The notes under the pieces were generated by a model, which was not told the origin of the DNA, did not search any database, and saw only the letters and a list, made by a program, of their open reading frames with translations. A program made the translations under genes and the position numbers. Shown piece after piece: positions 21,171-58,770 of a stretch of DNA of 64,000 nucleotides; position 1 is the stretch's first letter; each line of letters opens with the position of its first letter. The stretch is from a virus. Location: positions 48,821-112,820 of IMG/VR virus record IMGVR_UViG_3300025012_000042; one strand, given 5' to 3'.

Positions 21171-21268
21171 TTTTGCCACAAGAAACAAATGGGAATAGAC
21201 CTTATATCGGCAAAATATAAAGTCTATTAATTACACTTATTAATTTTCGAACATCAATAAGAAACCAT
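21171..21268 (-). ncRNA. structured leader L1 (three-way junction with loop-RBS pseudoknot)
   Basis: P1 AUGG/CCAU; UUCGAA hairpin; loop UUUUGCC (21209-21215) complementary to GGCAAAA (21171-21177) beside the RBS. Confidence 0.55.
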
Positions 21269-21638
21269 GAAACTATTTAACTAACCCCAAACAAAACAAA
21301 AAAGAGCCTCAAACAGCTCTTCAAAACTAAAAATACTAAATTCTAACTAATTTACACTCCAAAACCCAACTCCCAACAATTCCCACCTCTACAACCCTTG
21401 CTACAAACCACTTTTAAATCCACTATTTCAAACAAAATAAAAACATACTTTTATTGGATAATATTATTTTATTTATATATTTATTTCAATTCATTTATTA
21501 CTCTCATCCTCATCCCCTCAAATCATAAAAATCATCATCACTTATATCTTCTTGCATTTGATGAATTATTCTTTTAACTTCTTTTGACAAAATAAAAGAG
21601 AGTCAAACTAACGACTCTCAAAATAAAAATTATTAAAT

Positions 21639-21860
21639 TTATTTGCCTTCCCAAGAACTAACGTCATAGCAATCTTTAAAAACTCTTCCTTTATTGGTAT
21701 TATTATATGAATCATCCATTACAATACCATCTTTAACTTCAATATAATAATCTCCATATCCATTAATAAATTGTTCTCTATTAAAATCACCGATAAAGTA
21801 ATACCATTTTTCTTCCTCTTCAATCCATACCATAATATAAACGATGCTTTCTTGTGACAT
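21639..21860 (-). CDS. hypothetical protein
   Basis: RBS AGGAGG; promoter-like sequence upstream. Confidence 0.6.
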   Translation of the reverse strand: MSQESIVYIMVWIEEEEKWYYFIGDFNREQFINGYGDYYIEVKDGIVMDDSYNNTNKGRVFKDCYDVSSWEGK

Positions 21861-21962
21861 AAATAAAACCTCCTATATATCTTTTATTTATTTGTAATTA
21901 TAATATCACAATATGTATAGATTTACAAGTTATTATAAAAATTTTATTTATTGCTTTATGAT

Positions 21963-22577
21963 CTAGGCAACTAAAGTATGTAATTTAGGATAAGAACATA
22001 TATTATATTTCAACTTCTGCAATAATTCATTTTTTCTCCTTTTACCATTACAATTAAAATATATGTATCTATGCTTCCTTGGCCTATCCACTAGCATTGT
22101 ATCTTCTTTATCTTCATGAGCGTGTCTATTATGTTTTATAGTAGATCCATCAATTTTAACTCTGTTTGTTCTCTTTGCAGTTAGTCCAGTGTATATCCAA
22201 TTAGTAGCCTGATATACATAACCTACATGACCTTGTTCTGGCTCAGAGTAAGATACTATTATTTCTCTATCTAATAGTTTAATAGTATTACCTATTAAGA
22301 AACTTTCACCATTCTTTGGAACTTTATCATCAACCCATAACCGAGTTAATTCATATACATTTAATTCTTCTTCTCTTCCACATATTCCTCTACAAACATT
22401 TGGACTAGCAGGTATTCCATATATAATTACACCCACTAAATTATCTGTAAGTATTTCAAATAAACCAAATGCAAATACACAAGATGCTTTTCTATGTAGA
22501 TAATGTTTCTCAATAATTATATCTATAGCTAATTTATATGGAATTTGTTTTATGTAATAATTATCTTTTATGCTCAT
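21963..22577 (-). CDS. Mom-family adenine-modification enzyme
   Basis: HYL, ELTRLW, KNGESFLI, VSYSE..GHVGYVYQATNW, KHRY motifs. Confidence 0.8.
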   Translation of the reverse strand: MSIKDNYYIKQIPYKLAIDIIIEKHYLHRKASCVFAFGLFEILTDNLVGVIIYGIPASPNVCRGICGREEELNVYELTRLWVDDKVPKNGESFLIGNTIKLLDREIIVSYSEPEQGHVGYVYQATNWIYTGLTAKRTNRVKIDGSTIKHNRHAHEDKEDTMLVDRPRKHRYIYFNCNGKRRKNELLQKLKYNICSYPKLHTLVA

Positions 22578-22709
22578 TTAATCCTCCTTTTATTTATGAA
22601 AATAGATTGTTTTCCCACAATTTTTAATCAAACATAATATTATCACCTCACTTTGCAATAATTATACATCGTGAGGCAATAAATGTAAAGGAATATTTTA
22701 TTTATTAGT

Positions 22710-23693
22710 TTATAACTCATCTTCGTAATCATAGTCTTCTTCGCTATCATGTTGCTCAATAATATTAAGTTCCAATAATGCTTTATTATATTTGTCTATA
22801 CTAATATTAGTAATTCCTAAGTCTTCATTGATTTGCTTGAGAGAAAATGGAATTTTCAGGGACTTTACACATTTTAAATATGAATAATATAAAAACAATT
22901 TATGATTATTAATTTTATCAACTGTTGTTTGATTTAATATTTTATTTTTCTCTGAATCGTAAAGGATAAAATAATTATTGTTTAAGTTAATTTCTAATGA
23001 ACATTCAAGTCTATCATTTATTCTTGCTTTATTAAAATCTTTATCTGACTTAATAATTTTGCTTGCTTGAATATTGCACAATATATCTTTAAATCTATCA
23101 ATAGATTCATCTTTTCTTGAATTACACATAAATCCACAGTCTGAAATCATATCCTTTAGACGAAATTTTATTATATTTCTCCTATTTTGATTCATATATA
23201 AAAAATCTAAAATATATAGAGTTTTATAGTCATTATTATTATTTTTCAATATACTTGATTTACCATTAACATAAAAAAGTTCATTTGGGATTTTAGATAG
23301 ATAATCCTGTTTTGATTTCAATGAATCAATTCTAAATATATTATTACGAGCACCTTTCTTTAATTTGTACCCTCCTCCACCGCCAGAAGATATATTGTAA
23401 TAATGACTATCCTCTACGGCATTGTGGTTTTTAATTGAATCAATTTCTAATTTATTGAGTTCTTCTTTGGAATATGCAATAGCAATTATTTCTCTATTAA
23501 AATTTTCTTTATTATGTTTAAATACTGCTATTTTTAAAAGAGATCCACTTCCTAAATATGTTCTCCAATCATTGGTTAACTTCTTTTGACCAATATACTT
23601 TCTATTATTAATTTGATTTGTTGTTATGTAAATGAATCCATATGGTTTTATGACTTCTAACTCTTCAATACTATATATCTTTTCCTCTAACAT
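22710..23693 (-). CDS. GIY-YIG (Seg-like) nuclease fused to a wHTH region
   Basis: GFIYITTN...KYIGQ; YLGSG; YYNI; C-terminal LKQINEDLGITNISIDKY HTH-like segment. Confidence 0.7.
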   Translation of the reverse strand: MLEEKIYSIEELEVIKPYGFIYITTNQINNRKYIGQKKLTNDWRTYLGSGSLLKIAVFKHNKENFNREIIAIAYSKEELNKLEIDSIKNHNAVEDSHYYNISSGGGGGYKLKKGARNNIFRIDSLKSKQDYLSKIPNELFYVNGKSSILKNNNNDYKTLYILDFLYMNQNRRNIIKFRLKDMISDCGFMCNSRKDESIDRFKDILCNIQASKIIKSDKDFNKARINDRLECSLEINLNNNYFILYDSEKNKILNQTTVDKINNHKLFLYYSYLKCVKSLKIPFSLKQINEDLGITNISIDKYNKALLELNIIEQHDSEEDYDYEDEL

Positions 23694-23900
23694 AATTTAA
23701 TACATCTCCCTTATATCGTTATTTACATATTTCTTCCAAAATTTGGGCGTGTCAAAACTTTACATAATATATTATTTTACTCTTACGTTGCGTAACCTCG
23801 TTCCCTACGTAACCCCGAAGGTGTCTCTTAATCCATTACCACTATTACTATTGGTTAAAGTATTATAAGAGGGATAAAGATTAAGAGATAATATAAAATA

Positions 23901-25487
23901 TTAAACAGTAACAATATTATTATTTTTATAATCCATTAAATCCTCATAGAATCTTCTTCCGCATAGAGATTTTATTTCTTTATTCTCAAAATTATTTATA
24001 ATACAATTATTAAATGATTCTATGTAATTATCTCCCTCATTAAATTCAAAACATTTTTCTTCTTCAACATCCTTATCCTCTATAATATTCAAAGTTATTT
24101 TATATTTATTTGGCTCTTTCATGTATTTATGTTCTATTGGAGTATTTCTAGAAACAATTTCTATAAAACTATTTTCTGATAGTTGATTAACTATTTTTAT
24201 TAATGTCACTCTTGATAAATTTGTGGCTTGTTCCATTAAACTATACGGAAAATAAAATATGCCAGATTTCTTAGCATATCTCTTGCTATGTATAAGCATT
24301 GAGTATAATACCAGTTTATTATTTTTACCACTTGCTTTAAGGATTTCTTTAATTTCTTCATATGTAATCTTTACTGTTTTTACTCCACCAACAAGATTAA
24401 ACTCATGAGTATAAACATATTCAACAATATTATCTATATCTTTTAAAACATTATTCCATTTTGTTGTGTAGCAATTTTTATCCTGCTGATTCATCCATTC
24501 TGTAATCCACTCTTTACAATCCTCCCTAGATACCTCTAAATGCTTATAATATTTCGTGATGTTTATTAACGACTTCCATCTCATTCCTGTCTGAGTTAAC
24601 CCTTTTTCTATTAAGTCTTCTATTGCTTCTATAGTTATTTTTTCATCAACATTCTGATCATATTGGGGCAATGGATTGTGAGCATTTTTTGTTTCTTTAT
24701 AGTCTTCTATATTCTTTGTACTAACATCTTCTTCCTCAATATCAAATATTTTATCAAGAATAAGTCTAAATAATATATTATCCATCTTCTTAATTTTAGT
24801 TATATGTAATGGATCTTTGATTCTTCTTAACCCCTTACTATAATCACAGAAATAGCAATAATTGTTTTTATCAATTTTATTATTGAAATTAATACCTAAA
24901 GGAAGTTTTACGCCTTGCTTATTAGTTGGTCTAAATTCTACTTTACCAAAATTCTCTCCATCAATGATTAAATCTTCTTTTTCTTTTAAACTCTCTTTAT
25001 CTAATACATATTTATGAAATTTCTTTAGCAGATTTACTTCAATTGGTGAATCGAAAAACAACTCTATATGATAACCCTTACCTCCTGAGAAGCTAATATT
25101 AATAAAATCATAATCTATGCCAACATCTTGTAAAACATGAACTATTTTATCGACAACCCATTTTGCCTTTTCTATGTTTTTCCTTTTCTCTTCTTTATCA
25201 GTTTTATCTTTTTGTCCTATATCAATATCAAAAGTTATAAACTTGCTATCTTCAACACCTTTCATATCCCTAGCAAAAACACCTATAGTTTTAATTCCAT
25301 CAATGTGATTTTTAACTATAGAATCTGTCAACATTGGCCCATTTGTTTTTTCTGGATAATCCTTATAATAATGAATTGAAACATAATTATCCTTTTTCTC
25401 ACTCCATATAAGATATTTAAATCTTTGTAATATGTATAAATCATTAATTGCTTTGACAATTTCCTCTTTCTCTGGATTTATTAGCAT
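23901..25487 (-). CDS. AEP-superfamily primase/Rep (TOTE-like) with C-terminal wHTH
   Basis: FITFDID, SGGKGYHI, VKLPLG. Confidence 0.75.
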   Translation of the reverse strand: MLINPEKEEIVKAINDLYILQRFKYLIWSEKKDNYVSIHYYKDYPEKTNGPMLTDSIVKNHIDGIKTIGVFARDMKGVEDSKFITFDIDIGQKDKTDKEEKRKNIEKAKWVVDKIVHVLQDVGIDYDFINISFSGGKGYHIELFFDSPIEVNLLKKFHKYVLDKESLKEKEDLIIDGENFGKVEFRPTNKQGVKLPLGINFNNKIDKNNYCYFCDYSKGLRRIKDPLHITKIKKMDNILFRLILDKIFDIEEEDVSTKNIEDYKETKNAHNPLPQYDQNVDEKITIEAIEDLIEKGLTQTGMRWKSLINITKYYKHLEVSREDCKEWITEWMNQQDKNCYTTKWNNVLKDIDNIVEYVYTHEFNLVGGVKTVKITYEEIKEILKASGKNNKLVLYSMLIHSKRYAKKSGIFYFPYSLMEQATNLSRVTLIKIVNQLSENSFIEIVSRNTPIEHKYMKEPNKYKITLNIIEDKDVEEEKCFEFNEGDNYIESFNNCIINNFENKEIKSLCGRRFYEDLMDYKNNNIVTV

Positions 25488-25527
25488 TATAAATCAATCT
25501 CCTTTATATCGGTAATATTAAATTAAA

Positions 25528-25716
25528 TTATTTATCCTTTTTGCACCATTCTCTAAAAGCTTTTTGAAGTTCATCTGTATTAAGGAATTGAACATATAAG
25601 TCACCTTTTGAACCAAAATCAATTTTTAGTGGCACAATTCCTTTACTGAAATAAAATTCATATTGAAACTTATTATAAATGAAAGCGTACTTTTTCTCTG
25701 CAATGGCATTTGTCAT
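25528..25716 (-). CDS. small hypothetical protein, paralogue of 27702-27905
   Basis: Shared Y..Y...Q..FY.SKG...F.....W pattern. Confidence 0.6.
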   Translation of the reverse strand: MTNAIAEKKYAFIYNKFQYEFYFSKGIVPLKIDFGSKGDLYVQFLNTDELQKAFREWCKKDK

Positions 25717-25879
25717 TATAGATCAATCCCCTTTTCTATTTGTATGTAGATAATTTTATTTATTAGTTTCCTCCTTGTGATAATTATACTACACTTATGA
25801 ATACTTGTCAAATAAATTTATTTATTAATTTACTAATAGGATAGGCTCTCTATCTGTACATAATTAAATTGGACAAGTT

Positions 25880-26140
25880 TTACCAACCCAAATCATCATC
25901 AATTACATCTGTTTTCTTACCCTTCACAAATTTAGGTTTCCAATAATCATCCTCTTGACATTCCTCTTCATCATCCCAACCTTCACCAAGATTATAAAAA
26001 TTATCTAAACACAAATGTCTAAATTTCTCATATAATTCATTTGCTATGACCTTTTCATGTTCAGTTTCATATTGTGAATCATGTAATACTTTAATCAATA
26101 AATCTAATTTTTCCTCATTTAGTCGCAAAAATCTATGCAT
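25880..26140 (-). CDS. hypothetical protein
   Basis: RBS AAGGAG. Confidence 0.6.
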   Translation of the reverse strand: MHRFLRLNEEKLDLLIKVLHDSQYETEHEKVIANELYEKFRHLCLDNFYNLGEGWDDEEECQEDDYWKPKFVKGKKTDVIDDDLGW

Positions 26141-26234
26141 TGTTTAATCTCCTTTATTTTTTTAATTATTTAAGGAGTCATCCGTGATGGACAACTCCTT
26201 AAATTAAGTAATATTCATTCACCAACCATTCACA

Positions 26235-26441
26235 TTAATCAAAACTAAATTCAGCATCATCTTCAAATATTTTATTATATAATTCAGTTAAACCAATTGT
26301 ATAAGTGTCTACAATTTCATCATTATCATTTATAATGTGAACATTGAAGGTGTGAGTTGAGTTATCAATTTCCATATTAACAAAGTAATCCTCATTTATT
26401 TTTAGTAGTAATTTTATTTCTTCAATTCTTGATTTCTTCAT
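26235..26441 (-). CDS. hypothetical protein
   Basis: RBS AAGGAGG. Confidence 0.6.
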   Translation of the reverse strand: MKKSRIEEIKLLLKINEDYFVNMEIDNSTHTFNVHIINDNDEIVDTYTIGLTELYNKIFEDDAEFSFD

Positions 26442-26471
26442 GTTATATTCCTCCTTAAAATTATGTATTAT

Positions 26472-27635: not shown

Positions 27636-27701
27636 TATATTTTTCCTTCTTTCTTTAATTTTATTTCCTTATTTCATTAAATACCTAATATCAAACCATT
27701 T

Positions 27702-27905
27702 TTATCTTTGATAATTTTTCCACAGTTCGTAAACGTCTGCTGTCTCTTTCCTATCAAATTTATGCCACATCTTTTTTGTTGCGTAATGAACTCCTACATC
27801 CTTAACCATTTTTCCTTTAGAAATATAGAATTGTACTTGGACAAGATCATATAAGTAAACATATTTATCCTTTGGATCAATTTCCATCCTCTCACCTCCC
27901 TTCAA
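27702..27905 (-). CDS. small hypothetical protein
   Basis: GGAGG RBS before an internal ATG (MEIDPK); paralogue of the 25528 ORF. Confidence 0.6.
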   Translation of the reverse strand: MKGGERMEIDPKDKYVYLYDLVQVQFYISKGKMVKDVGVHYATKKMWHKFDRKETADVYELWKNYQR

Positions 27906-28228
27906 TAAAATTAATTTTGGACATAATAATAGAGAGGAAATTTATTCTCATAAATTCCTCTCAAAACAATCTCAACCATACCTTTAAAATTAGCATTTTA
28001 AATTAATTACACCCAATGTGACCTTAGTGAACTAACTCTTAAAAAATGTAAATTCCAACCTCTAAAAAACCCAATCATATCAACACTTTCAGGCCGCACA
28101 ATAATCTAATATCCACAGAAAGGACTCTCTAAGCTGTTCAAATTGATGCTATGTAAGTATATATGGTAGAGACTTTTCTAAACGCTTAGAGAGCGATTAT
28201 ATTTGTGATATTATTAATTATAATTTAA

Positions 28229-28414
28229 TTAAAATTTATCTCCATCACTAGGATTATTAAGAATCCCAAATCCAGTTAAAGCTACAAGAATTAAATTAAC
28301 CAATTCATCAGCTTGAGGAATTTCATATCCAATATAAGTCTTACTAACAAACGTTACAAGTGAAGCAACTGAGAGCCACAATCCCCATGATTTGAATCTG
28401 TTTTGATTTTGCAT
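28229..28414 (-). CDS. holin
   Basis: NRFKSWGLW...GILNNP; two TM segments; next to the endolysin. Confidence 0.8.
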   Translation of the reverse strand: MQNQNRFKSWGLWLSVASLVTFVSKTYIGYEIPQADELVNLILVALTGFGILNNPSDGDKF

Positions 28415-28436
28415 TATTATTTCCTTCTTTCTTTTA

Positions 28437-28913
28437 TTATTTTATTGAAATGCCATACTTCACAGCCACAACTGAAGTTATTAGTAAACTTACAATCCCT
28501 ATAATTTTCAATGCCATGCTCAAATTATTATGTAATTTTATCTTTTTTATTTCAGTATTGCTAATTATTTCTTGTTTTTTTATTTCAGTATTACCTGTTG
28601 AATTACCTATAGCTATTTGACTTATTGTATTAATTAAGAGATTAGAAGTTTGTAGATTTTGCAATGTTGTATTTTCTACTCTAGCAAGAGTATTGTCCAG
28701 AGAATTAAATCTGGTCTCGTAGGAGATGTCCTTTAACTCAAGTTCATGGAGTTTTTCACTATGATTAATAATTTTATCAGAAAGTCCATGAATTTTTTCT
28801 TCGTGTTGAGTTGTTTTTGTTTGTAAATCTATAATTTTTCCTGAATGACTCTCAAGGACTTCTTTTATTTCATTTTCATCCACTTCCAACACCTCCATAA
28901 TTATATTTTCCAT
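28437..28913 (-). CDS. XhlA-like coiled-coil membrane protein of the lysis cassette (start revised)
   Basis: Coiled coil plus C-terminal TM between amidase and holin; RBS AAAGGGG. Confidence 0.55.
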   Translation of the reverse strand: MENIIMEVLEVDENEIKEVLESHSGKIIDLQTKTTQHEEKIHGLSDKIINHSEKLHELELKDISYETRFNSLDNTLARVENTTLQNLQTSNLLINTISQIAIGNSTGNTEIKKQEIISNTEIKKIKLHNNLSMALKIIGIVSLLITSVVAVKYGISIK

Positions 28914-28920
28914 TTGACAT

Positions 28921-29033
28921 TTGCCCCTTTCTGATGTATTATTAATCAAGGTTGCATCTCTAGTACAGATGTACTCCTAGACAAGCTACAGAAATTGGGC
29001 AATTTTTCTGTACTTGTCGCTACATATGACAAC
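28921..29033 (-). ncRNA. structured leader L2 before the lysis membrane genes
   Basis: P1 GUUGUCAU/AUGCAAC; long hairpin with loop UUGCCC (28997-29002) complementary to GGGCAA in the RBS (28921-28926); small GUAC hairpin. Confidence 0.5.
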
Positions 29034-29118
29034 TGAAAATAAATAATATTTATAAAGAATTAATAAATTAGATCAGAAGAGATGTAAAAATAAATTTACA
29101 CCTCTAATTTGAGTTTGT

Positions 29119-29964
29119 TTATTTTCCTTGCAAATACTGATGAACTTTGTTTGCCGTATCGTATTTATCATTTCCACTCAGAAGCAACTCGTTTTTATGT
29201 CCAGTTTTTGAACCACCTACTACAATCAGTTTCTTACTATTCATAGCACCTTTGGGAACACTTTTATCAGCAGGTCTAATAAAAATAGCACAATTGCCAT
29301 TCTTTTCTGCTACATCAGTTCCACTCCAATAATCCTCTTTTGAATATAAAAGTACACAAACATCTAACATGTCATTCACTCCTTGATTATTATTTGTTGA
29401 TTGAATAGTCTTTTCTGTCACATATTCCAAACCAAGATATTGTTGTATGCCTTTTACAATAGAAATTGCACATTTTCTCTGAAATTCAGGACTTGCCAAC
29501 AATTTTTCTTCTGTAGGATTACTTATGAATGGTAATTCTACTAAACAACTAGGACATTTGGTGTATTTATTTACATATAAATCAGTAACCTTAATCCCTC
29601 TATTTGTTAGTCCTGTATCTGAAATTAAATTTGATTGAATTGCTTTTGCTAATTTTTCTGCATCTGCCCCCAAAGCAGACACATGGGTTTCGATTCCATG
29701 AGCAGTTTTATCAGAATGGCTATTATTGTGTATAGATACAAACCATTCTGAATTAAAATTATCTGATGAATCAACAACTGCCCATAAATCGCCATTCTGA
29801 ATAGCATTAATATTATGACCTAATCTTTGTAATTCTGAGACAACAATTGTTCCTACTGCTTTTACAACATCTGATTCTTTAAGTCCTGATGCTCCTATTG
29901 CCCCTGGATCAAATGTACCATTAGATTTTTTACCATGACCAAAATTTATAGTTCCTCTTGACAT
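29119..29964 (-). CDS. N-acetylmuramoyl-L-alanine amidase endolysin (Amidase_3) with CWB2-like C-terminus
   Basis: GHG..DPGA..E, FVSIHNN, LVELPFISN; LIVVGG...LSGNDKYDTA. Confidence 0.9.
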   Translation of the reverse strand: MSRGTINFGHGKKSNGTFDPGAIGASGLKESDVVKAVGTIVVSELQRLGHNINAIQNGDLWAVVDSSDNFNSEWFVSIHNNSHSDKTAHGIETHVSALGADAEKLAKAIQSNLISDTGLTNRGIKVTDLYVNKYTKCPSCLVELPFISNPTEEKLLASPEFQRKCAISIVKGIQQYLGLEYVTEKTIQSTNNNQGVNDMLDVCVLLYSKEDYWSGTDVAEKNGNCAIFIRPADKSVPKGAMNSKKLIVVGGSKTGHKNELLLSGNDKYDTANKVHQYLQGK

Positions 29965-30041
29965 TGTTTCATTTCACCTTTCTTTACAATATGAAATAAA
30001 GTCACATTTAAGCGACAATTATTTTATATTTAATTAATTAT

Positions 30042-30518: not shown

Positions 30519-30520
30519 AA

Positions 30521-31713: not shown

Positions 31714-31751
31714 TAAGATTTGTTGCCTCCTTTATATTTAGTTTAGTTTTG

Positions 31752-32780
31752 TTATTTACTTGTTAATGTGGGCAATAAAATAGAACTATCGGTTTGGATT
31801 GATAGTTCTAAATTATGTAGTATTTCTTGAATTTTAGTATCGACTAATTTTTTAAATTCTTTTACCTTATTTGTTTTATACGGTATTCTAGTTATTTTTA
31901 TACCATTATCCTCACAATACTTATTTTTAATATTATCCTTTCTAATTCTATCTAAATACCCTTCTTTTCCACCAAAATAATCAATAATTTTCCCGTGTTG
32001 CTCTCCATCTATTTCTACAACTTCATTTAATTCAGGTATGTAAAAATCGAATTTTAACAATGCTTTATCTTTACATTCCTTAAACTTCTTTTCGGATTTA
32101 TACAATATACCATTTAAAATCAACGCATTTTCAAATATTTTGTTTCCATTTGATTTAGAAAAATAAGGGTGTCCACTTCCTCCATTAATAAAACAATCAG
32201 CAGTTTGAGTAAATGTTGAGTTTATATTAACTGGCAAGTTACCTTTATAAATCCATTGATAATCTGATTTAAGTTTATCGTATTCTGTGCTTATTATCTC
32301 ATAATCTGGTCTGAATAATTTGCAAAATAACCGTATGTTATCCAATGCAAATTTATTATATTGAAAAGGAGAAGGACAAGAATTTTTTCTTTTAATATTT
32401 GAGATAGATACTTGAACCTTAAATCCATATTTATCATGACACCATATAGATTTGTCAACATTTTTCCAATCATCTATATTTATCATTTTATATCCTCGTT
32501 CATCCAAAAAAGAATACGCTAATTCATTTGTCCAATTAGTTAGTCCATTTTTATCGCAATAACATTGTTTACATAGAAATCCTTTTTTAAAACTATTCCA
32601 TAACACCCAAGATTCCTTATGATTGTTGTTTGGACATTTTATTAGTGCCCATAATTCTTTTTGATATGATTTTTGTATCCATTTAATATCTAATACTTTA
32701 TATTCCATGCATTCAGACTTACTTTCGCAAAATGTATTCATTGAATCTACATTCCATTTCTTTTTACCCATTATTCTCAT
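31752..32780 (-). CDS. Zn-ribbon PD-(D/E)XK-type putative homing endonuclease (start probably 32771)
   Basis: LKFDFYIP...VEIDGEQH...D..KNKYC. Confidence 0.7.
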   Translation of the reverse strand: MRIMGKKKWNVDSMNTFCESKSECMEYKVLDIKWIQKSYQKELWALIKCPNNNHKESWVLWNSFKKGFLCKQCYCDKNGLTNWTNELAYSFLDERGYKMINIDDWKNVDKSIWCHDKYGFKVQVSISNIKRKNSCPSPFQYNKFALDNIRLFCKLFRPDYEIISTEYDKLKSDYQWIYKGNLPVNINSTFTQTADCFINGGSGHPYFSKSNGNKIFENALILNGILYKSEKKFKECKDKALLKFDFYIPELNEVVEIDGEQHGKIIDYFGGKEGYLDRIRKDNIKNKYCEDNGIKITRIPYKTNKVKEFKKLVDTKIQEILHNLELSIQTDSSILLPTLTSK

Positions 32781-32786
32781 TCCTTT

Positions 32787-32881
32787 CTGACAAAAGTTTT
32801 AGGAAATGGGAAAAGAGCCAATGTGTCAGCACAGCTCTTTTAATTACCTTTGTAATGCTTCGAATCACTACAAAGAACCAT
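32787..32881 (-). ncRNA. structured leader L3
   Basis: Same layout and shared sequence with L1; CUGACA (32824-32829) complementary to UGUCAG (32787-32792) abutting the AAAGGA RBS. Confidence 0.55.
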
Positions 32882-32897
32882 ATTTAATTATAGATTA

Positions 32898-38438: not shown

Positions 38439-39371
38439 TTAAACAGAAGAAGAACTATTTTCTAGTTCTTCTTCGAATTTTATATAAGTAACTCTTTTTA
38501 ATTTTCCATAATCAAATTCATTGTGGAATTGCGATGTTATTATTAATCCATTATCAATATCAAATTTTATCCAAGAATGTCCAGTATTTAGATATTTTAT
38601 TGCGTATTTATAAATGTCAATAATTATTTCTTTGCTAGGAAGATTATCTTTTAAAGATATTATTCTTATTTCTTTCCAACCTTTATTATTTAATGCATAT
38701 GATCTTTTTATTTCTTTATTTTTAAATTCTTGCTCTGTTTGATATCCTCTTTGTACTAATAAATTATGACCTCCACCGTCATATTCTATGTAAATTTTAT
38801 CTTCTAAAAAAGCAATATCTAAAAAGAAATAAGACTGAAGATAATTTAATTCACCTCCAAGAACATTTGAAATATACTGTTGGCCACGACTTAAAGGAGC
38901 CGTACCATTTCGATATAAAGACATCAATCTCTTTTTATTAATTTCCTCAGTGTGTAAAAAATAACCTATCCCATTATATTTTTCTTCAAAAGTTTTACTT
39001 ATTTTATCACTTACTGATTTCAATTTAGTAGGAATATTCACTCCATAACGAAGCATATTACTTTCCTCCCTTTTTAAAACAATACAATCAACACAACAAT
39101 CTTTATGTATTATTCCATTTTTATTTTTATTGGAATAACTATCAAATGTTTGAGTATATTCTTTTCCACAATAATCACATATAAAATTAACTTGTATGTT
39201 ACTATACTCAGATAAGTCTAATACATCAACCATTATTTTTGCATCTTTTGGTATATGAAATCTATTTCGTTTATCTAATCTTCTAGGTATTTCATACCCT
39301 TTTTCTTCATAATATCTAATTGTTCTCCCTCTTAACCCTACCTCTACTTCTTGTGGTAATACTAACGCCAA
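38439..39371 (-). CDS. PD-(D/E)XK-type putative homing endonuclease (start revised to TTG 39371)
   Basis: CDYCG; FLDIA...YIEYDGGGH; GWKEIRI; RBS AAGGAGG; paralogue of 19827-21151. Confidence 0.7.
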   Translation of the reverse strand: MALVLPQEVEVGLRGRTIRYYEEKGYEIPRRLDKRNRFHIPKDAKIMVDVLDLSEYSNIQVNFICDYCGKEYTQTFDSYSNKNKNGIIHKDCCVDCIVLKREESNMLRYGVNIPTKLKSVSDKISKTFEEKYNGIGYFLHTEEINKKRLMSLYRNGTAPLSRGQQYISNVLGGELNYLQSYFFLDIAFLEDKIYIEYDGGGHNLLVQRGYQTEQEFKNKEIKRSYALNNKGWKEIRIISLKDNLPSKEIIIDIYKYAIKYLNTGHSWIKFDIDNGLIITSQFHNEFDYGKLKRVTYIKFEEELENSSSSV

Positions 39372-39393
39372 ACTAAATCCCTCCTTAAGATTA

Positions 39394-39484
39394 CCTCCCA
39401 TATAAATACAAACAATAAGAAAGCAAGCAGAAACACACTATGGGAGGAAAGTTAAATGTGTTTTCAGATATCATCTGCCTACTT
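39394..39484 (-). ncRNA. structured leader L4
   Basis: P1 AAGUAGGCAG/CUGCUUGCUU; loop CCUCCCAUA (39439-39447) complementary to UAUGGGAGG (39394-39402). Confidence 0.55.
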
Positions 39485-39559
39485 ACTAAAATAGACATAC
39501 AAAAGAAGAGGTTAAAATCACCTTTCCCTCTCACCTTTTATTCTTCTTTTAACACAAAA

Positions 39560-48438: not shown

Positions 48439-48455
48439 TAATTAATCTCCCCTTT

Positions 48456-49229: not shown

Positions 49230-49286
49230 TTATTTTCACCTCCGATATAAAGAGGTATATTACACACATACACCTCTTTATATTTT

Positions 49287-52200: not shown

Positions 52201-55200
52201 ATCTCAATTGTAAAACCATTATTGACTTTATGAATATATGGTAATAAATCTTTATGTTTTTCTGCTAATTCAACAAGTTCTTCTGCTGTTAATTCTTCTC
52301 CATTCTTCATTTTTTGCAATAAATCTGTATAATTCTTTTGAGTAGACATTCCATCTTTAAAAGCTTTGTCCATGTTTGATATTGAATTTGTTAGGTTATT
52401 AATTTTTTCTGATGCATCATTTGCATCCGGTATTTTGAAAAATTCACCAATAGCATCTTTTAAGTCTTCATATGTTCCTTTGTCTTTTGCATTTAATTCA
52501 GTTTGATTGTGAATGTCTTCCAACTCTTTAATTAATCCTTGGTTAGTTGGATCTTTAGCAAGTTTTGCTTTTAATTCTTCAACTTTTTCAGAACTATCAC
52601 CAATTGCATCAGCAAAATCAATTATATTTTTAGCAGGAATGTATATACCTAATTTTTTATTAACTTCTTTAAGTTCTGCATTGAGTTTATTGTATTCGGC
52701 AGAAATATCTTCTACTATTGTTTTTGCAAAACTGTCTTTATTAGAAACTTTACCTATTGCTAAACTTAACTTTTCTAATATTGCGACTCTTTCTTCTAAA
52801 GTTCCATTAAGTTCAAGAATATCTTTACTGCCTTTTTGTCCATCAAAATCTCCAGCTATAGAATTTAATATGTTGTCAATTTCTACTTTTTTACCTACTG
52901 AATGCCCAACATATAATTTTGAAGTTGAGACATTTTTAGATTTTGCTAAAGCTTCTTCTCCTGAATTACCCATTGAAGCCAATTGTTCTCGGGCTTTTGC
53001 TACAGCTAGTTTATCAATTATACCAATTTGTTTTTCATATTTACCACTTACTAAATCTAAATCTTTTGCTTCAGTACCATAAGTCTTAATAAGTTCATCT
53101 TGAATACTTTTCAAACGAGCTTTTGATTCACTTGTTAAATCTCCAGACTTAATAATTTTTTCGTATTCAGATTTTAAACTAACTAATGACTCTCGCTCTT
53201 GATTAAGTTTTTGAGTTAACTCTTCTGCTTCTCTCGCATTTTCTTTTTGTTTTTGCTTCCAAATATCAAATACTACTATTGCTGTTGTTATCGCACCTAT
53301 GATAAAACCAATTGGATTTGATTTTATTGCTACATTTAAACCATGCATTGCTAAAGTTAATCCTCTTGTTGCGATGGCAGATCCTAACATTTGCTCTGTA
53401 TAACCTGCCATCGCACCTTTAGAAATAATCATTAATCGAATATTATCAGTTAAAGCCAAACCAAAAGTCCTAGATGAAGTTGCCCAAGCAATAAGAGCTG
53501 AAGTAATTTGTGTTCCTTTAAGTAAGGCCAATACTGCTGTAACTGACATTATTATAGTTGTTAAATTTCCAAATGCGTCTATTAAGTAACTTAAACCATC
53601 AAGTGTTCCTTTAATTAAACTTGAATCTAATGTTGACTGCCAAAACCCCTCGACTGAATTTTTCAATTTGTCGAATTTTGCCGATGTTGATTCTTGATAT
53701 ACATTGAATTTTGATTCTGCCGTCCCAGACGCATTTAAGGCATTTTCATAATTCTTTAATGAGTCACTATAATTATTTAATAGTGTTATACCTCTGTTTC
53801 TTTGAAATGTTCCAAACATAGTTGTAGCGATATATGCTTTTTCATTCTTTTCTAAACTGCCAAATTTTGCACCGACCATATCCATTACTGTTGCAAAATC
53901 CAATAATTGCCCTTGAGAATCTGTTGCTTTAATACCAATGTCGTCCAAGGCTTTTACTACATCATTTAATTGTGTCTCATCGTCTGAATTAAATCCTGTC
54001 TTTTTTATGGATTCATAACGGCTGATCACAGAATTTAAGCTTCGTCCAATAGTTGAGGACGACTCACGTGTGATGCTGGAAATTGTTGCCAGCCATGAAG
54101 CGCTTTTTTCGAGCGAAATGTTACTATTCTCACTTGCTGATGCAACTCTTTGGAGGGCTTCTCCGATCTCATTTGCTCCTGAAGCAGTTGTGTCTCCTAA
54201 TAATGCAAATATATCTATAATTTTTTGCACATCTTCGCCAGTTGCGTTAGCTGTCGCAGTAATAATTGTATTACTTTCTTTTAAGGAAAGAGAACTAATT
54301 TTTGCATATTGAATTATAGACTTCATTCGTTTTTCAACGTCAGATTCAGATAAACCTTGTCTAAAAAGATCGGCAGATGTCCCTGCTATTTCTTTAGTAG
54401 TCACAGACATCTCTTTACCAAGTTTATTATATGATTGTGCTAAACTTTCAACTTCTGCTTGTGTTTTATTAGTTACTATACGAATTTGATTAAGAGAATT
54501 ATCAAGCTCGTATATATAAGAAATTCCCAATTTTAACTGATTGAGGCTGCCATAGACCAAATTCGTACTTATTCCCCAAATTGCGATCTTTTTTGCGGCC
54601 AAAGTGAGCATTTGACTAAAAGCATATCCATCTCTACTTGAGTTTCTAAACTGGCCAGATACTTGAGCAACTCTAGTTCTAAGAGTGTCTAATTGTAATC
54701 CGTATTGTCTAGCAGAAATTTCACCTCTTCTAAATGCATTTTCCATTTCTTTTAATTTTGCAACTTCAGCACTAACCCTTGAATCAGCAAAAACCTTATC
54801 TTTATTTATTTTTAACCTATCAAGAGAGTTATTTATACGCTTAATTTGATCTTCTACATTTTGAGGAAATATATTTTTATTGTTCCCGTTACTCCCACCA
54901 GTACCACTACTTCCTAAATTTCCATTGACATTTACATTCAAATTTAACTTGAATTTCTTAGATAAAATTTCTAAATCTTTTCTGAATTTTTCAATTGATG
55001 CGGTGGATTTATCTAATTGAAACCCTAAATTTACTTTAAATTTCTTAACTTGCTTGTCTACGATATCTTGTGTTAAACTAGTTGCATCAAATTTTCCTTT
55101 CAGAATAATCTTGACATTCTTTAATTTTTTATCTATTTTATCCTGAGTTAAATCTGTTGTATCTAATTGTCCTTTCAAGTTAATTTTAAGATTCTTTAAC

Positions 55201-55277
55201 TGTTCATTAATTTTATCTTGTGTTAAATCAGTAATATCTAATTTACCTTTAATTAATATCGACAATTTATTGTCCAA
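49287..55277 (-). CDS. tape measure protein with soluble lytic transglycosylase domain
   Basis: TP901-like core; IKQESGF...GLTQLMPATA...AAYNAGPG. Confidence 0.9.
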   Translation of the reverse strand: MDNKLSILIKGKLDITDLTQDKINEQLKNLKINLKGQLDTTDLTQDKIDKKLKNVKIILKGKFDATSLTQDIVDKQVKKFKVNLGFQLDKSTASIEKFRKDLEILSKKFKLNLNVNVNGNLGSSGTGGSNGNNKNIFPQNVEDQIKRINNSLDRLKINKDKVFADSRVSAEVAKLKEMENAFRRGEISARQYGLQLDTLRTRVAQVSGQFRNSSRDGYAFSQMLTLAAKKIAIWGISTNLVYGSLNQLKLGISYIYELDNSLNQIRIVTNKTQAEVESLAQSYNKLGKEMSVTTKEIAGTSADLFRQGLSESDVEKRMKSIIQYAKISSLSLKESNTIITATANATGEDVQKIIDIFALLGDTTASGANEIGEALQRVASASENSNISLEKSASWLATISSITRESSSTIGRSLNSVISRYESIKKTGFNSDDETQLNDVVKALDDIGIKATDSQGQLLDFATVMDMVGAKFGSLEKNEKAYIATTMFGTFQRNRGITLLNNYSDSLKNYENALNASGTAESKFNVYQESTSAKFDKLKNSVEGFWQSTLDSSLIKGTLDGLSYLIDAFGNLTTIIMSVTAVLALLKGTQITSALIAWATSSRTFGLALTDNIRLMIISKGAMAGYTEQMLGSAIATRGLTLAMHGLNVAIKSNPIGFIIGAITTAIVVFDIWKQKQKENAREAEELTQKLNQERESLVSLKSEYEKIIKSGDLTSESKARLKSIQDELIKTYGTEAKDLDLVSGKYEKQIGIIDKLAVAKAREQLASMGNSGEEALAKSKNVSTSKLYVGHSVGKKVEIDNILNSIAGDFDGQKGSKDILELNGTLEERVAILEKLSLAIGKVSNKDSFAKTIVEDISAEYNKLNAELKEVNKKLGIYIPAKNIIDFADAIGDSSEKVEELKAKLAKDPTNQGLIKELEDIHNQTELNAKDKGTYEDLKDAIGEFFKIPDANDASEKINNLTNSISNMDKAFKDGMSTQKNYTDLLQKMKNGEELTAEELVELAEKHKDLLPYIHKVNNGFTIEIDALEDLRKQSIKTRLQTIADEKKKSEDVLKESEKRIKQLGLEKNAMAGLSNTHENITSVLHQLILQEMNKTGKSYGEVYNGFEKDNTYGALYNLADAQSKIDEANKKADLYTKALEMPVVATKKVDIPEVVTGPYAELIRESAKQNGISATLLDALIKQESGFRAKIVSPSGAVGLTQLMPATAKSLGVSNSYDPAQNIEGGAKYLKQQLDKFGGDISLALAAYNAGPGAVTKYGGIPPYAETQNYVKSVLGDYNARKSNETAVAEIGDKKIEDPQTFKDTTDAIIKEINAQNLLTKTKSDSIQKEVEQAKSQEEYILTLSKTNELIASQELQLTQLQDAKAKINAETPQGYWRWFTEDNEESLTFQSEWNESSNATRTSMEALFTKIQKLRKAWVENKNATEEATDSQKQLQSTILDINYDIVKSDLTTYNKSIESISDSLSLLKSEQDQYSQSSSQYSDNQKQQIELLKQKSEAIQSEIDHLQILIATTNLTASAQEELQSTLTSLYSSLSSTKSETLSIYNSIADSIINTFKRVYEKQKDIAISKIEDEMDYEDKRHEKKLDNLDKEMQKYQDAYDEKMKLINDEANAEDYNLNLTNAQKDAQKIQNDINILSLDDSIEAKFKREELETQLADKITEIEKMQKDHSRDLRKDALSEQLDDYKTDIDAKKDSEESKYKSIKENLDKQKTDTEYMYNELINDERKYASMRLAIISGNTNAIKSQMSSFLSDFKDMNKSTARSLGESWNDLLDLIDEVKSASKSVDDIKDSKSESSAKSSKINVYGNSIDIGLAKSVNNADKFNFITVNNGDASSAKSGDIVLGGSAVIPNIGQGERIWGDDRYETLEKFKKKTEGFKTGGVNNVPGMTMLHGTNSSVETIFNATDGKKLWDIVHNLPSLSTNLMSNIKLPDYSNILKQSQQQTMEFKFDNLIHVEGNVDAKSLPSLEKIAKYTINELNKTFNRSGVFRK

Positions 55278-55365
55278 AGATTTGACCTCCTTTTAATTTA
55301 TTTTTAAATATAATAAAAGAGGGGCAACCCTCTTGAAAATTCTTTATAATTTATTATTAAAATTA

Positions 55366-55394
55366 TTGATATTCTAACATTTTTGGCATATAAT
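55366..55394 (+). promoter_or_regulatory. SigA-type promoter of the opposite-strand moron
   Basis: TTGATA-17-TATAAT. Confidence 0.65.
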
Positions 55395-55417
55395 GAAAAT
55401 AAAAGGGGTGACACAAA

Positions 55418-55978
55418 TTGGGAATGGCAATTTTTATAGCAATTTTATTATCAGCAATTATTTATATTTATTGTAGTCATAATATTGCAAAACAAAGGAA
55501 AGCATTTGAAGTTAAAGAAAGACAATCTGGAAATATATTAACCACATTTCTCCTTCATCTAAATGGACACCCGTACTTACAACCTAATGATGTAGTAACT
55601 CTTCAATTACGCAAAAACAAAACAATATATATTGAGAATAAAAATATTAATACAAAAACTCATAAGAAATCCAATTTTATAGGGAGTGAAATTCTAATAT
55701 CACAATTAACTAAGTATGAATCTAAAACTGAAACGGAAATTAGAAGAGATGTTACTCTAACGAGATTAATTGCACTTGGTATTTTTGCATTTGGAATTAA
55801 AAAGAAGACAGAAACAAATACTCAATATTTAATCTTAACATATATAGACAATGGTGTAGAAGTAACTTGTGTATTTAAACAAATGCAAGACCATCAAGAA
55901 TTAGGAAGTATTATTAGCAATATAAATCGCATGAGAATTGAATCGAATAATATTAAAAGTGTGTTAACTAACAATTAA
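55418..55978 (+). CDS. membrane-anchored moron protein
   Basis: N-terminal TM; DVTLTRLIALGIFAFGIKKK; antisense to the tail operon. Confidence 0.7.
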   Translation: MGMAIFIAILLSAIIYIYCSHNIAKQRKAFEVKERQSGNILTTFLLHLNGHPYLQPNDVVTLQLRKNKTIYIENKNINTKTHKKSNFIGSEILISQLTKYESKTETEIRRDVTLTRLIALGIFAFGIKKKTETNTQYLILTYIDNGVEVTCVFKQMQDHQELGSIISNINRMRIESNNIKSVLTNN

Positions 55979-55997
55979 CACACTTTTCTATTGACCA

Positions 55998-56414
55998 TTA
56001 TTCTGTTTTGAATCCTCGTTTGTTTAAAGCATTTTTAATAAATAATCTTGCTTTACTTTTTGATAAATCTTCATATGTCTTTGCGAAGAATGGTCTTGGG
56101 CCAATTCTATCATCTAAATCAATACCCCATTGATATCCTTTAGAATACTCAATTATATATGGTATATTTTCACCTTCATCTCCTCGTCTAGTATTTGTTA
56201 ATTCAATAGTATCATTGCTAATATTTGTAGTCTTGCAACTATCAATTAATTTCCAACTGCGTTCATAATGTGTTGGTATGTACTCATTATAGACATCATC
56301 TTGTATATGTTCTCTCATCAAATGCCTACTTTCTAATGCAACGTCTGTTTGCAAACTGTCTGATATTTGTTTCAGTAAGTATTTTTCTAATTCAGAAACA
56401 GTTTTAAATTCCAC
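55998..56414 (-). CDS. tail completion / HK97 gp10-like protein
   Basis: VY..Y.P..YER and GPRPFF motifs; upstream of the tape measure gene. Confidence 0.55.
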   Translation of the reverse strand: MEFKTVSELEKYLLKQISDSLQTDVALESRHLMREHIQDDVYNEYIPTHYERSWKLIDSCKTTNISNDTIELTNTRRGDEGENIPYIIEYSKGYQWGIDLDDRIGPRPFFAKTYEDLSKSKARLFIKNALNKRGFKTE

Positions 56415-56437
56415 TATACCGCCCCTTTTTTAATTTA

Positions 56438-56983
56438 TTATAATTTATCTACACCTTTATCCCATGCCGTGACATCTTTTACAAATTTAAGTTTATCTGG
56501 ATCAAGTTTATCAAATTGTTTAGAAATATCTTTAATAAACTTTGTCATTCCTTTATCGTCTGGTATTTTTGCAAGCAACTTATTTAAACCTTGTGACACA
56601 ACATTTTGAAAAGAATTATCTACTTTATATATTTCTTCAATTTGCTCATTTACACTATCTGTGATAAAAGACATTTCACTTTGATCTATATTATTCATAA
56701 TATACGCGACTGTTCCAGATTCTTTAAGTGAATCATATAATTCTAAATTATCTTCTTCAGACATATCAATATTACTTACTTGATTACAAATAGAAAACTC
56801 AATAGCCATTCTTTTCATTACATGGTCAATATGCTTAAATCCATCTTCTTCGATTGTAACACAAGCGAGTAGAATATTTTCAATTATGTTTTGTTTTACA
56901 AGAAATGGTATATATTTTTTGATAGTAATATTTGAATAATCCTCTTTAATCTCTGATACTTTAATTAAGTTTTTCTCTGTCAT
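56438..56983 (-). CDS. putative tail assembly chaperone-region protein
   Basis: Position upstream of the tape measure gene; no diagnostic motif. Confidence 0.4.
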   Translation of the reverse strand: MTEKNLIKVSEIKEDYSNITIKKYIPFLVKQNIIENILLACVTIEEDGFKHIDHVMKRMAIEFSICNQVSNIDMSEEDNLELYDSLKESGTVAYIMNNIDQSEMSFITDSVNEQIEEIYKVDNSFQNVVSQGLNKLLAKIPDDKGMTKFIKDISKQFDKLDPDKLKFVKDVTAWDKGVDKL

Positions 56984-57018
56984 TTATTTTTCCTTCTTTC
57001 GTAATTTTATTTATTGCC

Positions 57019-58635
57019 TTAATTATTTACCTTTAACTCAATTCCGTGTTCTTTAAATTTATTTATTAAACCCTTCAATCCATGTTTCATATCCTCTGGA
57101 TAAAGTTCTAACAAAGTTAAATTATTGTCCTTACATATCTTTTGTTTTTCTTCTGTTCTTTTTTGGTAAAATTCCTTTCTTTGTAATCCAAAATACTCAA
57201 CAATTATATCGTTCGCTAAAAACCAATCGCATCGTTTATATCCACAACGAATATCATCTGTAAAAACTGAGTAATAAACTTCTTTTTCATATCCAAGACT
57301 ATTATCTATAAATAAATTGGTAATAATTAATTCTGGATGAGATAAACATAAATCATTATTTTTTGATCTATATGTATTATTAGAGAATATATTTCCACTG
57401 TAATTAGGTTCTAACCCTGCCACTTGACAAGCATTAACATAACCATTAAAACAACGTCCATATGTATTATGATGTGCCATTTCTTTATTCTCACTTATTT
57501 CTTGTGCAAGAGGAGTTCTTCCTAGAAACAATGCAAAATCCTTTAAATCCCTTATTAGTTTTTCTTTATCATATGTAATATATAAATGCTCGTCTAAATC
57601 TTTTTTTAATCCAAGTTTTACTCCTTGGGCCATAACCGCATTTGGCGTTCTATTAAAAATGTTTGCCAACTCTTTATTTGTCTTGATTGGGTATTCTTTG
57701 ATAAATATTTCTATATCTTCATCCGACCATCTTATTCTTGACTCCAATCCTAATTTATATCCTTTTGTAACTATTGATGACTCTGTACGATGTGGCAACA
57801 ACATTACTAGTTGTTTTGTAGATTTTTCTCCATAATATTCTTTCAAAATATCAATATCTTCTTCTGACCATTCTGAATTTAGCAATCTTTTTATATTCAA
57901 ATCTGATGCCTTATGTATAATTCCATCTTTATCAAATGGTTTTAATACTTCTAACAATTCCTCCCATTCTGTTGTAGGGTAATATGTTTTAAGATTTTGT
58001 ATTTGTTCTTCAGACCATATATCATTTCTATTTAATTCAATGTTGTATTTTTTAAGAACATAATATATTGAAGCTCCATCACTATATCCATATTTCTTAG
58101 CTATTTCTTGACAATTGATTCCATTCAAATAATCTTGGATAATTAATTGATATTCTTCACTACTTCTTTTTTTTATGTATAATCCTAAGTTGTTTGCTTT
58201 TTTCATTATTATTTCTTTATTACGTTTAATCATTAACTTATTGTTAATATCTTCAATAGAACTATTAGTATAATAATCAATTAAAACTTGCTCATCACAT
58301 TTGTACCACCCACTGTCACCTAATACATCAATTTCTTTTAAAAAACTATTCCAACTTCCCCATTTACGTTCATAATTAACTCCTGATGGATAACCAATTG
58401 TTGGTTTTAATTCTTTTTTTAAAGGATATCTCTCATTTTCATTAAAGAAACGCCAAAATTCAGATATTAAAAATTCTTTAGAAAAATTCGTTATCCTTAC
58501 TAAATGCTCATGATTTCTCTTATCTTTTATTTGTGTTGTTGTTTTACTAAGTTTTTCTGCTAATTCTTCATCTGTCATGACCATATAATTGTCTTTTAAA
58601 AAATCTCTTTCTTCTTTTGACCATATAATTCTCAT
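57019..58635 (-). CDS. repeat-rich putative homing endonuclease
   Basis: WSEE(D/Q)I..LK..Y repeats; LGRTP...Y.R.F....A...AGL repeats; RCDWFL..IVEYFG nuclease-like C-terminus. Confidence 0.65.
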   Translation of the reverse strand: MRIIWSKEERDFLKDNYMVMTDEELAEKLSKTTTQIKDKRNHEHLVRITNFSKEFLISEFWRFFNENERYPLKKELKPTIGYPSGVNYERKWGSWNSFLKEIDVLGDSGWYKCDEQVLIDYYTNSSIEDINNKLMIKRNKEIIMKKANNLGLYIKKRSSEEYQLIIQDYLNGINCQEIAKKYGYSDGASIYYVLKKYNIELNRNDIWSEEQIQNLKTYYPTTEWEELLEVLKPFDKDGIIHKASDLNIKRLLNSEWSEEDIDILKEYYGEKSTKQLVMLLPHRTESSIVTKGYKLGLESRIRWSDEDIEIFIKEYPIKTNKELANIFNRTPNAVMAQGVKLGLKKDLDEHLYITYDKEKLIRDLKDFALFLGRTPLAQEISENKEMAHHNTYGRCFNGYVNACQVAGLEPNYSGNIFSNNTYRSKNNDLCLSHPELIITNLFIDNSLGYEKEVYYSVFTDDIRCGYKRCDWFLANDIIVEYFGLQRKEFYQKRTEEKQKICKDNNLTLLELYPEDMKHGLKGLINKFKEHGIELKVNN

Positions 58636-58643
58636 CTAATTCA

Positions 58644-58770
58644 ACACTCCTTCAAATTTTATATTCTTATCCCTACCAACCACACTCCAAACCAATAAAT
58701 TATAAAAAGGCAACAAAAAAGAAGGGAGGAGTGTATCCCTTCTACTACATTGCAATTGTAGATGTTGCTT
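58644..58770 (-). ncRNA. structured leader L5
   Basis: P1 AAGCAACA/UGUUGCCUU; CUACA-UGUAG hairpin; loop ACACUCC (58728-58734) complementary to GGAGUGU at 58682-58688 and at the RBS 58644-58650. Confidence 0.6.

Follow-up and report, generated by a model that had tools for sequence, protein, structure and literature searches.

A leader RNA family whose hairpin loop covaries with the ribosome-binding site of homing endonuclease genes in uncultured phages

The sequence analysed here, called the window throughout, makes up the right-hand 64 kb of an uncultured phage contig of 112.8 kb in IMG/VR (IMGVR_UViG_3300025012_000042). On its minus strand lie five leader sequences, L1–L5, which a preliminary description had taken for a single family of three-way-junction RNAs, each pairing a hairpin loop with the ribosome-binding site (RBS) region downstream. 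Two of them, L1 and L3, are homologous members of a real structured RNA family, which is uncatalogued in Rfam and widespread in uncultured phages; for this family the fold, the loop–target pairing and the association with endonuclease genes are established. The other three (L2, L4 and L5) share only the design with it. On balance, L1 and L3 are probably copies of a conserved cis-acting 5' leader RNA (~118 nt) that heads free-standing homing endonuclease genes and limits translation of the nuclease by means of a pseudoknot.

Members and scaffold of the L1/L3 family

Relatives were sought in viral and metagenome contigs using a pattern made from the bases common to L1 and L3, followed by further scans and a covariance model, R1. 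A second covariance model, R2, was trained on 48 sequences. Labels such as L155, L163 and L004 denote leader loci in other contigs. In contigs of uncultured phages (viral and metagenome), a total of 63 distinct copies were confirmed with R1, and 58 of these were usable. Between one and three copies were present in each of the phage records searched (34/34), which include near-complete genomes of 122 to 349 kb; the parent contig of the window holds exactly two. In the whole window R1 and R2, run with filters off at E ≤ 10, matched L1 and L3 alone and left L2, L4 and L5 unmatched (the homologues of L5 likewise), so the five leaders do not form the one family that had been proposed. The likeness of L1 and L3 in primary sequence was borne out (74% identity), and their stems differ in a compensatory manner. 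Their features are as follows (P1, closing helix; SD, Shine–Dalgarno sequence).

L1, 21150–21273, minus strand: full model match (R1 83 bits, E = 6e-16; R2 74 bits)
L1 P1, minus strand: AUGG 21265–21268 with CCAU 21189–21192
L1 hairpin 1, 21236–21261, minus strand: loop GUUCGAAA
L1 junction, 21228–21235, minus strand: UGUAAUUA
L1 hairpin 2, 21195–21227, minus strand: loop core UUUUGCC 21209–21215
L1 target, 21171–21177, minus strand: GGCAAAA; SD region 21163–21168; start ATG 21149–21151
L3, 32768–32886, minus strand: full model match (R1 104 bits, E = 6e-21; R2 95 bits)
L3 P1, minus strand: AUGG 32878–32881 with CCAU 32806–32809
L3 hairpin 1, 32848–32875, minus strand: loop AUUCGAAG
L3 junction, 32841–32847, minus strand: GUAAUUA
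L3 hairpin 2, 32812–32840, minus strand: loop core CUGACA 32824–32829
L3 target, 32787–32792, minus strand: UGUCAG; SD AAAGGAA 32780–32786; start ATG 32769–32771

Two hairpins, with a conserved junction GUAAUUAA between them, and the short closing helix AUGG/CCAU make up the family anatomy. Across the 48 aligned sequences 97% of hairpin 1 is paired, and each of its pairs (10/10) has changed on both sides; for hairpin 2 the paired share is 97–98%. Compensatory changes affect nearly every pair of the two hairpins. P1 is 95% paired and varies little, 2/4 of its pairs covarying. The single-stranded segments AUGGUU, GUAAUUAA and UUCCCA are invariant and adjoin stems that vary freely.

The loop of hairpin 1 reads R-UUCGAA-R or R-UUGCAA-R in nearly all copies of the family and UGCGCG in one. 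Of the UUCGAA or UUGCAA loops described for three leaders, UUCGAA was seen in L1 and L3 and UUGCAA in L5; the L5 group and other related leaders have AUUGCAA, UAGCU, UGCGCG, AGUCGCGA or (A)GUAGCUA. A self-complementary loop on hairpin 1 is thus common to L1, L3 and L5, and no such hairpin is present in L2 or L4. A tRNA-type T-loop was considered, which GUUCGAAA resembles, but the variants UUGCAA and UGCGCG are better described by self-complementarity (ARAGORN found no tRNA in the window). Retention of a self-complementary core across differing sequences would be explained better by two RNAs kissing or dimerizing, or by a symmetric binding site, than by a T-loop. The arrangement recalls kissing-loop hairpins such as the HIV-1 dimerization initiation site, with a 6-nt self-complementary loop core flanked by purines and self-complementarity kept in UUCGAA, UUGCAA, UGCGCG and UCGCGA; the likeness is one of sequence logic alone, the present element being a phage mRNA leader.

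One decayed copy (L008:5439–5550, minus strand, 44 bits) has an intact hairpin 2 and has lost the hairpin-1 loop, the target and the downstream open reading frame (ORF). Leader and gene apparently decay together.

Pairing of the hairpin-2 loop with the ribosome-binding site

The pseudoknot was never part of the covariance model, so tests of it are free of model-fitting bias. The 58 usable copies have 33 distinct hairpin-2 loops between them, and every loop is complementary to its own target, a segment of 5–7 nt that abuts or overlaps the SD. The target starts ~17 nt after hairpin 2 (15–19 nt in 40/58 copies) and ends at the SD. Summed over the copies, the longest complement came to 198 when each loop was kept with its own target, a value reached in 0/5000 permutations, and to 147.7 ± 4.9 after swapping; the corresponding mean duplex energies were −6.67 and −3.25 kcal/mol, with 0/10,000 permutations as low as the former. 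Counted in a fixed register, 72.9% of positions were paired, compared with 63.8 ± 1.8 in shuffles and 32–45% when the register was slid.

Individual loci show the same behaviour. The near-identical leaders L155 and L163 have UUGUCA/UGACAA where L1 has UUUUGCC/GGCAAAA, a compensatory change. At the L3 locus in other phages, recognized by the same upstream gene end, the loops are CUGAUA, CCGAUUA, CCUGAUA and UUCUGAU, each fitting its own target. G–U pairs occur both in the stems and in the pseudoknot (for example CCACUA/UGGUGG and CCGUUA/UGACGG); the structure therefore resides in the sense-strand RNA.

The five loop/target complementarities reported for L1–L5 are all present on the minus strand where they had been placed. 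Taken as single sequences and judged against dinucleotide shuffles, these matches have chance probabilities of P = 0.015, 0.18, 0.011, 0.005 and 0.03 for L1–L5, respectively, and are only modestly unlikely; minimum-free-energy folds were uninformative for L2, L4 and L5 (z = −1.1, −0.7 and +0.4). The case must rest on relatives, since the single-sequence matches are mildly improbable and the folds of these three are unremarkable. The decisive evidence is comparative and limited to the L1/L3 family, in which covariation strongly backs the proposed cis pseudoknot between loop and RBS, whereas L2, L4 and L5 show complementarity with no compensatory change.

The position of the pairing relative to the SD varies. 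In the L1/L3 family the pairing stops at the SD or overlaps it by 0–3 nt, the overlap being 2–3 nt in several subgroups (UAUCGG·AGGA, AUAGG·AGG), and in L5 the SD lies within the pairing. The SD behind the leader is strong, typically ..GG·AAGGAG.

Downstream genes

Of 20 ORFs tested downstream of leaders of the L1/L3 family, 19 are homing endonucleases, and these belong to at least four families (GIY-YIG/NUMOD, HNH_5, DUF4379/phrog_559 and DUF7487/phrog_12131). The same leader type precedes different endonuclease ORFs (L1 compared with L004, L205, L163 and L155), and for this reason the leader behaves as a module. Within the window four leaders (L1, L3, L4 and L5) stand before endonucleases and one (L2) before lysis genes, as previously described, so the link to endonuclease genes extends from the L1/L3 family to L4 and L5 and not to L2.

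L1 gene, 20465–21151, minus strand: N-terminal part of a homing endonuclease (DUF7487/phrog_12131); the C-terminal part is a separate ORF, 19827–20456
L3 gene, 31752–32771, minus strand: homing endonuclease of the phrog_559 'HNH endonuclease' type
L4 gene, 38439–39371, minus strand: homing endonuclease, phrog_12131; N-terminus similar to that of the L1 gene
L5 gene, 57019–58635, minus strand: 538-aa protein with homing-endonuclease-associated repeats (HNH_repeat)
L2 gene, 28437–28913, minus strand: 158-aa coiled-coil protein with a C-terminal membrane anchor, no endonuclease
Lysis cassette, 28229–29964, minus strand: Amidase_3 endolysin (29119–29964), the 158-aa coiled-coil gene and a 61-aa membrane protein (28229–28414)

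The L2 gene was assigned to the lysis cassette because it lies between the Amidase_3 endolysin gene and the gene for the small membrane protein. The endonuclease behind L1 is split over 19827–21151 (minus strand), where two adjacent ORFs match the N- and C-terminal halves of phrog_12131/DUF7487; judged from the ORFs, the gene has probably been disrupted or frameshifted with its leader still intact.

The window has a G+C content of ~30% and strong ribosome sites of the AAGGAG type, and the nearest counterpart of its endolysin comes from a Moorella (Clostridia) phage. The phages carrying leaders of the L1/L3 type are uncultured and of low G+C content and probably infect Bacillota.

Three further loci (L419, L428 and L429) have leader variants before phrog_12131 endonucleases, with palindromic hairpin-1 loops of the UAGCUA type and hairpin-2 loops (UCUACAC, CUCACAA and CCUCAA) that fit one or two downstream targets. 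The loop-to-RBS leader design is a broad superfamily comprising several sequence families.

Upstream of relatives of the L4 endonuclease in other phages (L420, L422, L426, L421, L425 and L433) the sequence resembles a group I intron core, for example ..GATGAAGATATAGTC... Some members of this nuclease family thus seem to reside in introns, others to be free-standing behind a leader. Around the ORFs of the window itself, no match to Intron_gpI was obtained across 19000–60000 at E ≤ 10.

Leaders L5, L2 and L4

L5 represents a conserved leader in its own right, and its anatomy is that of the L1/L3 family.

L5, 58633–58771, minus strand: leader
L5 P1, minus strand: GCAACA 58763–58768 with UGUUGC 58710–58715
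L5 hairpin 1, 58745–58761, minus strand: loop AUUGCAA
L5 hairpin 2, 58720–58743, minus strand: loop ACACUCC (58728–58734), followed by U6
L5 targets, minus strand: GGAGUGU, the proximal one within 58680–58691 and the second on the SD, 58644–58653; start ATG 58633–58635

A terminator-stem pattern gave mostly unrelated terminators, and five true relatives in other phage contigs (L281, L322, L339, L341 and L345) were chosen by context. In the resulting six-sequence alignment (A7) P1 and hairpin 2 are invariant and three covarying pairs lie in hairpin 1. The loop (A)CACUCC, which resembles an anti-SD sequence, faces GGAGUGU twice, ~25 nt downstream and on the SD, and hairpin 2 with its U6 tract (58743–58720) was flagged by a terminator scan. 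In L5 the loop mimics an anti-SD, and hairpin 2 has a second, terminator-like character. A 'two-target' group (L003:6757, L117:402 and L007:7855) scores 26–59 bits with R1/R2 and has its hairpin-2 and U-tract sequence in common with L5. Since this group is intermediate, L5 is probably a distant relative of the L1/L3 family. Directly upstream of L5 lies a transposase-like ORF (phrog_506; 59266–60735, minus strand) with its own terminator at 58871–58844.

L2 is a conserved element distinct from the L1/L3 family. It had been drawn as a three-way junction and is in fact a bulged hairpin followed by a second hairpin.

L2, 28899–29018, minus strand: leader
L2 bulged hairpin, 28980–29018, minus strand: apical loop UUGCCC (28997–29002); second hairpin 28962–28975
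L2 target, 28921–28926, minus strand: GGGCAA, overlapping the SD AAAGGGG (28924–28930); in-frame ATG 28911–28913

Aligned with four related phage contigs, the stems of L2 differ yet pair (ACAGAAA/UUUCUGU, CCAGAU/AUCUGG, CUCAGA/UCUGAG). The loop UGCCC and the SD-overlapping GGGGCAA are both conserved in these contigs, with no compensatory change between them.

L4 is a singleton. Of the elements previously assigned to it, the closing stem (GCAGA/UCUGC) shares bases with the small hairpin (CAGAU-GAU-AUCUG), and the two are mutually exclusive. Its target had been placed at or beside the SD; the 9-nt complement exists, but it lies ~8 nt upstream of the real SD and not on it. The loop is also able to pair with the real SD over 5 nt.

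L4, 39362–39496, minus strand: leader
L4 hairpin, 39477–39496, minus strand; alternative hairpin CAGAU-GAU-AUCUG 39465–39477
L4 hairpin 2, 39431–39463, minus strand: 19-nt loop containing CCUCCCAUA (39439–39447)
L4 target, 39394–39402, minus strand: UAUGGGAGG; real SD AAGGAGGG 39379–39386; probable TTG start 39369–39371

A BLAST search of 39 related records, a search starting from relatives of its protein and one with the exact loop/target pattern all failed to find relatives of L4; matches to that pattern elsewhere were unrelated inverted repeats. L2 and L4 use the loop-to-RBS idea and are not members of the L1/L3 family.

Sequences upstream of the leaders

The leaders begin after stop codons or terminators of upstream genes. 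Many start 10–30 nt past the stop codon of a structural gene, which leaves no space for a promoter, and no fixed σ70 promoter was detected upstream of the leaders (AT-richness only, with no conserved −35/−10 elements at a constant distance). Where a leader follows a terminator, a shared box ..GTGG..TTTTTAAG..TTGA(A)TAGTTT.. directly precedes P1. It was seen in the window at 21269–21300 and 58772–58840 (minus strand) and at the loci L004, L205, L163, L155, L071, L322, L339 and L345. The box is common to L1-type and L5-type leaders and is a candidate phage-specific promoter that would start transcription at the first base of the leader. An upstream ORF with the ATGGTT segment as start codon was ruled out: its in-frame stops differ and GTG, TTG and AAG variants exist.

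Proposed mechanism and alternatives

In the mechanism that we favour, the hairpin-2 loop (6–7 nt) pairs with the bases at the 5' edge of the SD to give an H-type pseudoknot, which would block or weaken binding of the 30S ribosomal subunit. In the usual target the last bases are GG, immediately followed by AAGGAG; an 8-nt pairing of GGAAGGAG with the 3' end of 16S rRNA would be possible. The nuclease would thus be made at a low level, or under some condition only, even inside strongly transcribed operons; the position of many leaders 10–30 nt past the stop codons of structural genes would be in keeping with a need to shield translation of the nuclease from the strong transcription of the operon. 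An additional contact, either an RNA–RNA dimer or a bound factor, that might set the stability of the pseudoknot is suggested by the conserved junction and by the self-complementarity of the hairpin-1 loop.

Several points weigh against this proposal. P1 is short and its covariation backing is weak. The effect may be activation or stabilization and not repression. Most copies pair next to the core AAGGAG and not with the core itself, and occlusion may be partial. The strong SD and the elaborate conserved junction look more like a switch than a simple damper. Finally, the same covariation would be expected whether loop and target pair in cis, in trans or within a dimer.

We regard as doubtful, though worth stating, a more elaborate role in which the leader is more than a passive RBS mask: the hairpin-1 loops (at least five self-complementary variants) would kiss, or the three-way junction would be freed as a C4-like small RNA, and the fast-diverging hairpin-2 loop would serve as a programmable 'address' choosing the endonuclease mRNA to be shut off, in cis or in trans.

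It is unlikely that the leader acts chiefly as a C4-like antisense RNA, that is, a three-way junction that processing, or termination at hairpin 2, would release as a small RNA and that would use its loop to mask the RBS region both in cis and in trans, the many loop/target specificities preventing cross-talk between leaders. The loops do differ among the copies in one phage record. Hairpin 2 with U6 in the L5 family is terminator-like and stands upstream of both targets, so that termination would yield an RNA of ~60 nt with an anti-SD loop; and the C4 RNA of phages P1 and P7 is a leader-encoded antisense RNA with covarying specificity. However, the Rfam C4 model was unmatched at E ≤ 10, hairpin 2 of L1 and L3 was not flagged as a terminator, and pairing in cis at a distance of 17 nt is kinetically favoured.

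A regulated switch also appears improbable. The junction and hairpin 1 would here bind a metabolite, a phage or host protein or a second copy of the RNA and so decide whether the pseudoknot forms, giving timed expression in place of constant damping. Such a role would suit the invariant segments AUGGUU, GUAAUUAA and UUCCCA beside freely varying stems, the strong SD behind the leader and the self-complementarity of the hairpin-1 loop in independent variants (UUCGAA, UUGCAA, UGCGCG, UCGCGA and UAGCU(A)), but no ligand, protein or mutually exclusive alternative structure was identified and no riboswitch family was matched in Rfam.

We think it very unlikely that the leader is an enhancer, acting as a 5' stabilizer against exonucleases, as a ribosome standby site or through a helix stacked on the SD/anti-SD duplex. 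As a rule the core SD is unpaired and directly adjoins the pseudoknot helix, and in T4 genes 25 and 38 structure improves initiation (PMC3014915); against this, the pairing overlaps the SD by 2–3 nt in several subgroups and covers the SD itself in L5, and the known precedent for endonuclease genes is repression.

That hairpin 2 is an intrinsic terminator of the upstream gene or a DNA-level element (a recombination or homing site), with incidental complementarity to the RBS, is scarcely credible and already disfavoured for L1 and L3: although hairpin 2 of L5 is terminator-like, UUUUCCCAUUU follows hairpin 2 in the L1/L3 family and one leader stands before different endonuclease ORFs, as at a recombination boundary, incidental complementarity cannot yield 33 loop variants each fitting its own target, the G–U pairs argue against a double-stranded DNA element, and the L1 and L3 hairpins are unflagged, separate terminators lying upstream of L1, L4 and L5.

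Relation to known systems

RBS-sequestering structures repress I-TevI, I-TevII, I-TevIII, Aeh1 mobE and probably segB, as well as T4 lysozyme (PMC3014915). The present leaders resemble these hairpins in being cis RNA structures at the translation initiation region of selfish nuclease genes and in their presumed purpose, to keep a harmful protein low or delayed; T4 lysozyme gene e offers a parallel to L2, which also stands before a lysis gene. The T4-type hairpins differ in being simple, local and gene-specific and in enclosing the SD or AUG, with a late promoter inside the hairpin relieving repression. Here, a conserved multi-helix RNA family is common to at least four unrelated endonuclease families, the RBS flank is engaged by a hairpin loop in a pseudoknot, and a further hairpin bears a self-complementary loop; no internal promoter could be demonstrated, and none was conserved at a constant distance.

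Like the present leaders, the C4 RNA of phages P1 and P7 is a structured RNA encoded in a leader, with loops that pair with the downstream RBS region of the same operon and covary with their target between relatives. It differs in controlling an antirepressor and not endonucleases, and the leaders do not match it in sequence or structure. The int-alpA RNA motif of Rfam is likewise a phage-associated 5' leader motif, but L1, L3 and L5 did not match it even at E ≤ 10 with lax filters, and its hosts and downstream genes differ. The comparison with Rfam that had been proposed gave no family matching the leaders: Rfam 15, including C4 and int-alpA, returned only noise (at the gathering score, at E ≤ 10 on 41 kb and with lax filters on three short stretches).

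Megablast and blastn of the region against 50,697 deposited phage records gave only a 74-nt match to Geobacillus virus E3, the best-scoring leader had no blastn match in the same 50,697 genomes, and R2 had no match in Moorella phage MTATph1 or Geobacillus virus E3. A pattern scan of 185,579 bacterial genomes gave 49 hits, none confirmed by the model (best E 0.2), and so yielded no evidence for prophage copies. No description of such a motif was found in the literature, and the text of a survey of candidate viral RNAs published in 2023 (PMC10690425) contains no mention of one.

Biological significance

No selfish elements are commoner in large phages than homing endonuclease genes. To our knowledge, only for a few T-even genes, each studied by itself, is it understood how they avoid harm to the phage that carries them. 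A portable leader RNA found across at least four unrelated nuclease families indicates that the control of such genes can be modular and RNA-based, and the L1/L3 leader RNA could become a new entry in RNA family catalogues. It represents a natural pseudoknot with a freely varying pairing 'address' on a fixed scaffold, useful for studying or engineering translation control in Bacillota, and its self-complementary loop makes the dimerization of phage mRNA a directly testable question. Should the leaders prove to be addressable through kissing or C4-like action, they would constitute an RNA-based control network for selfish nucleases in phages.

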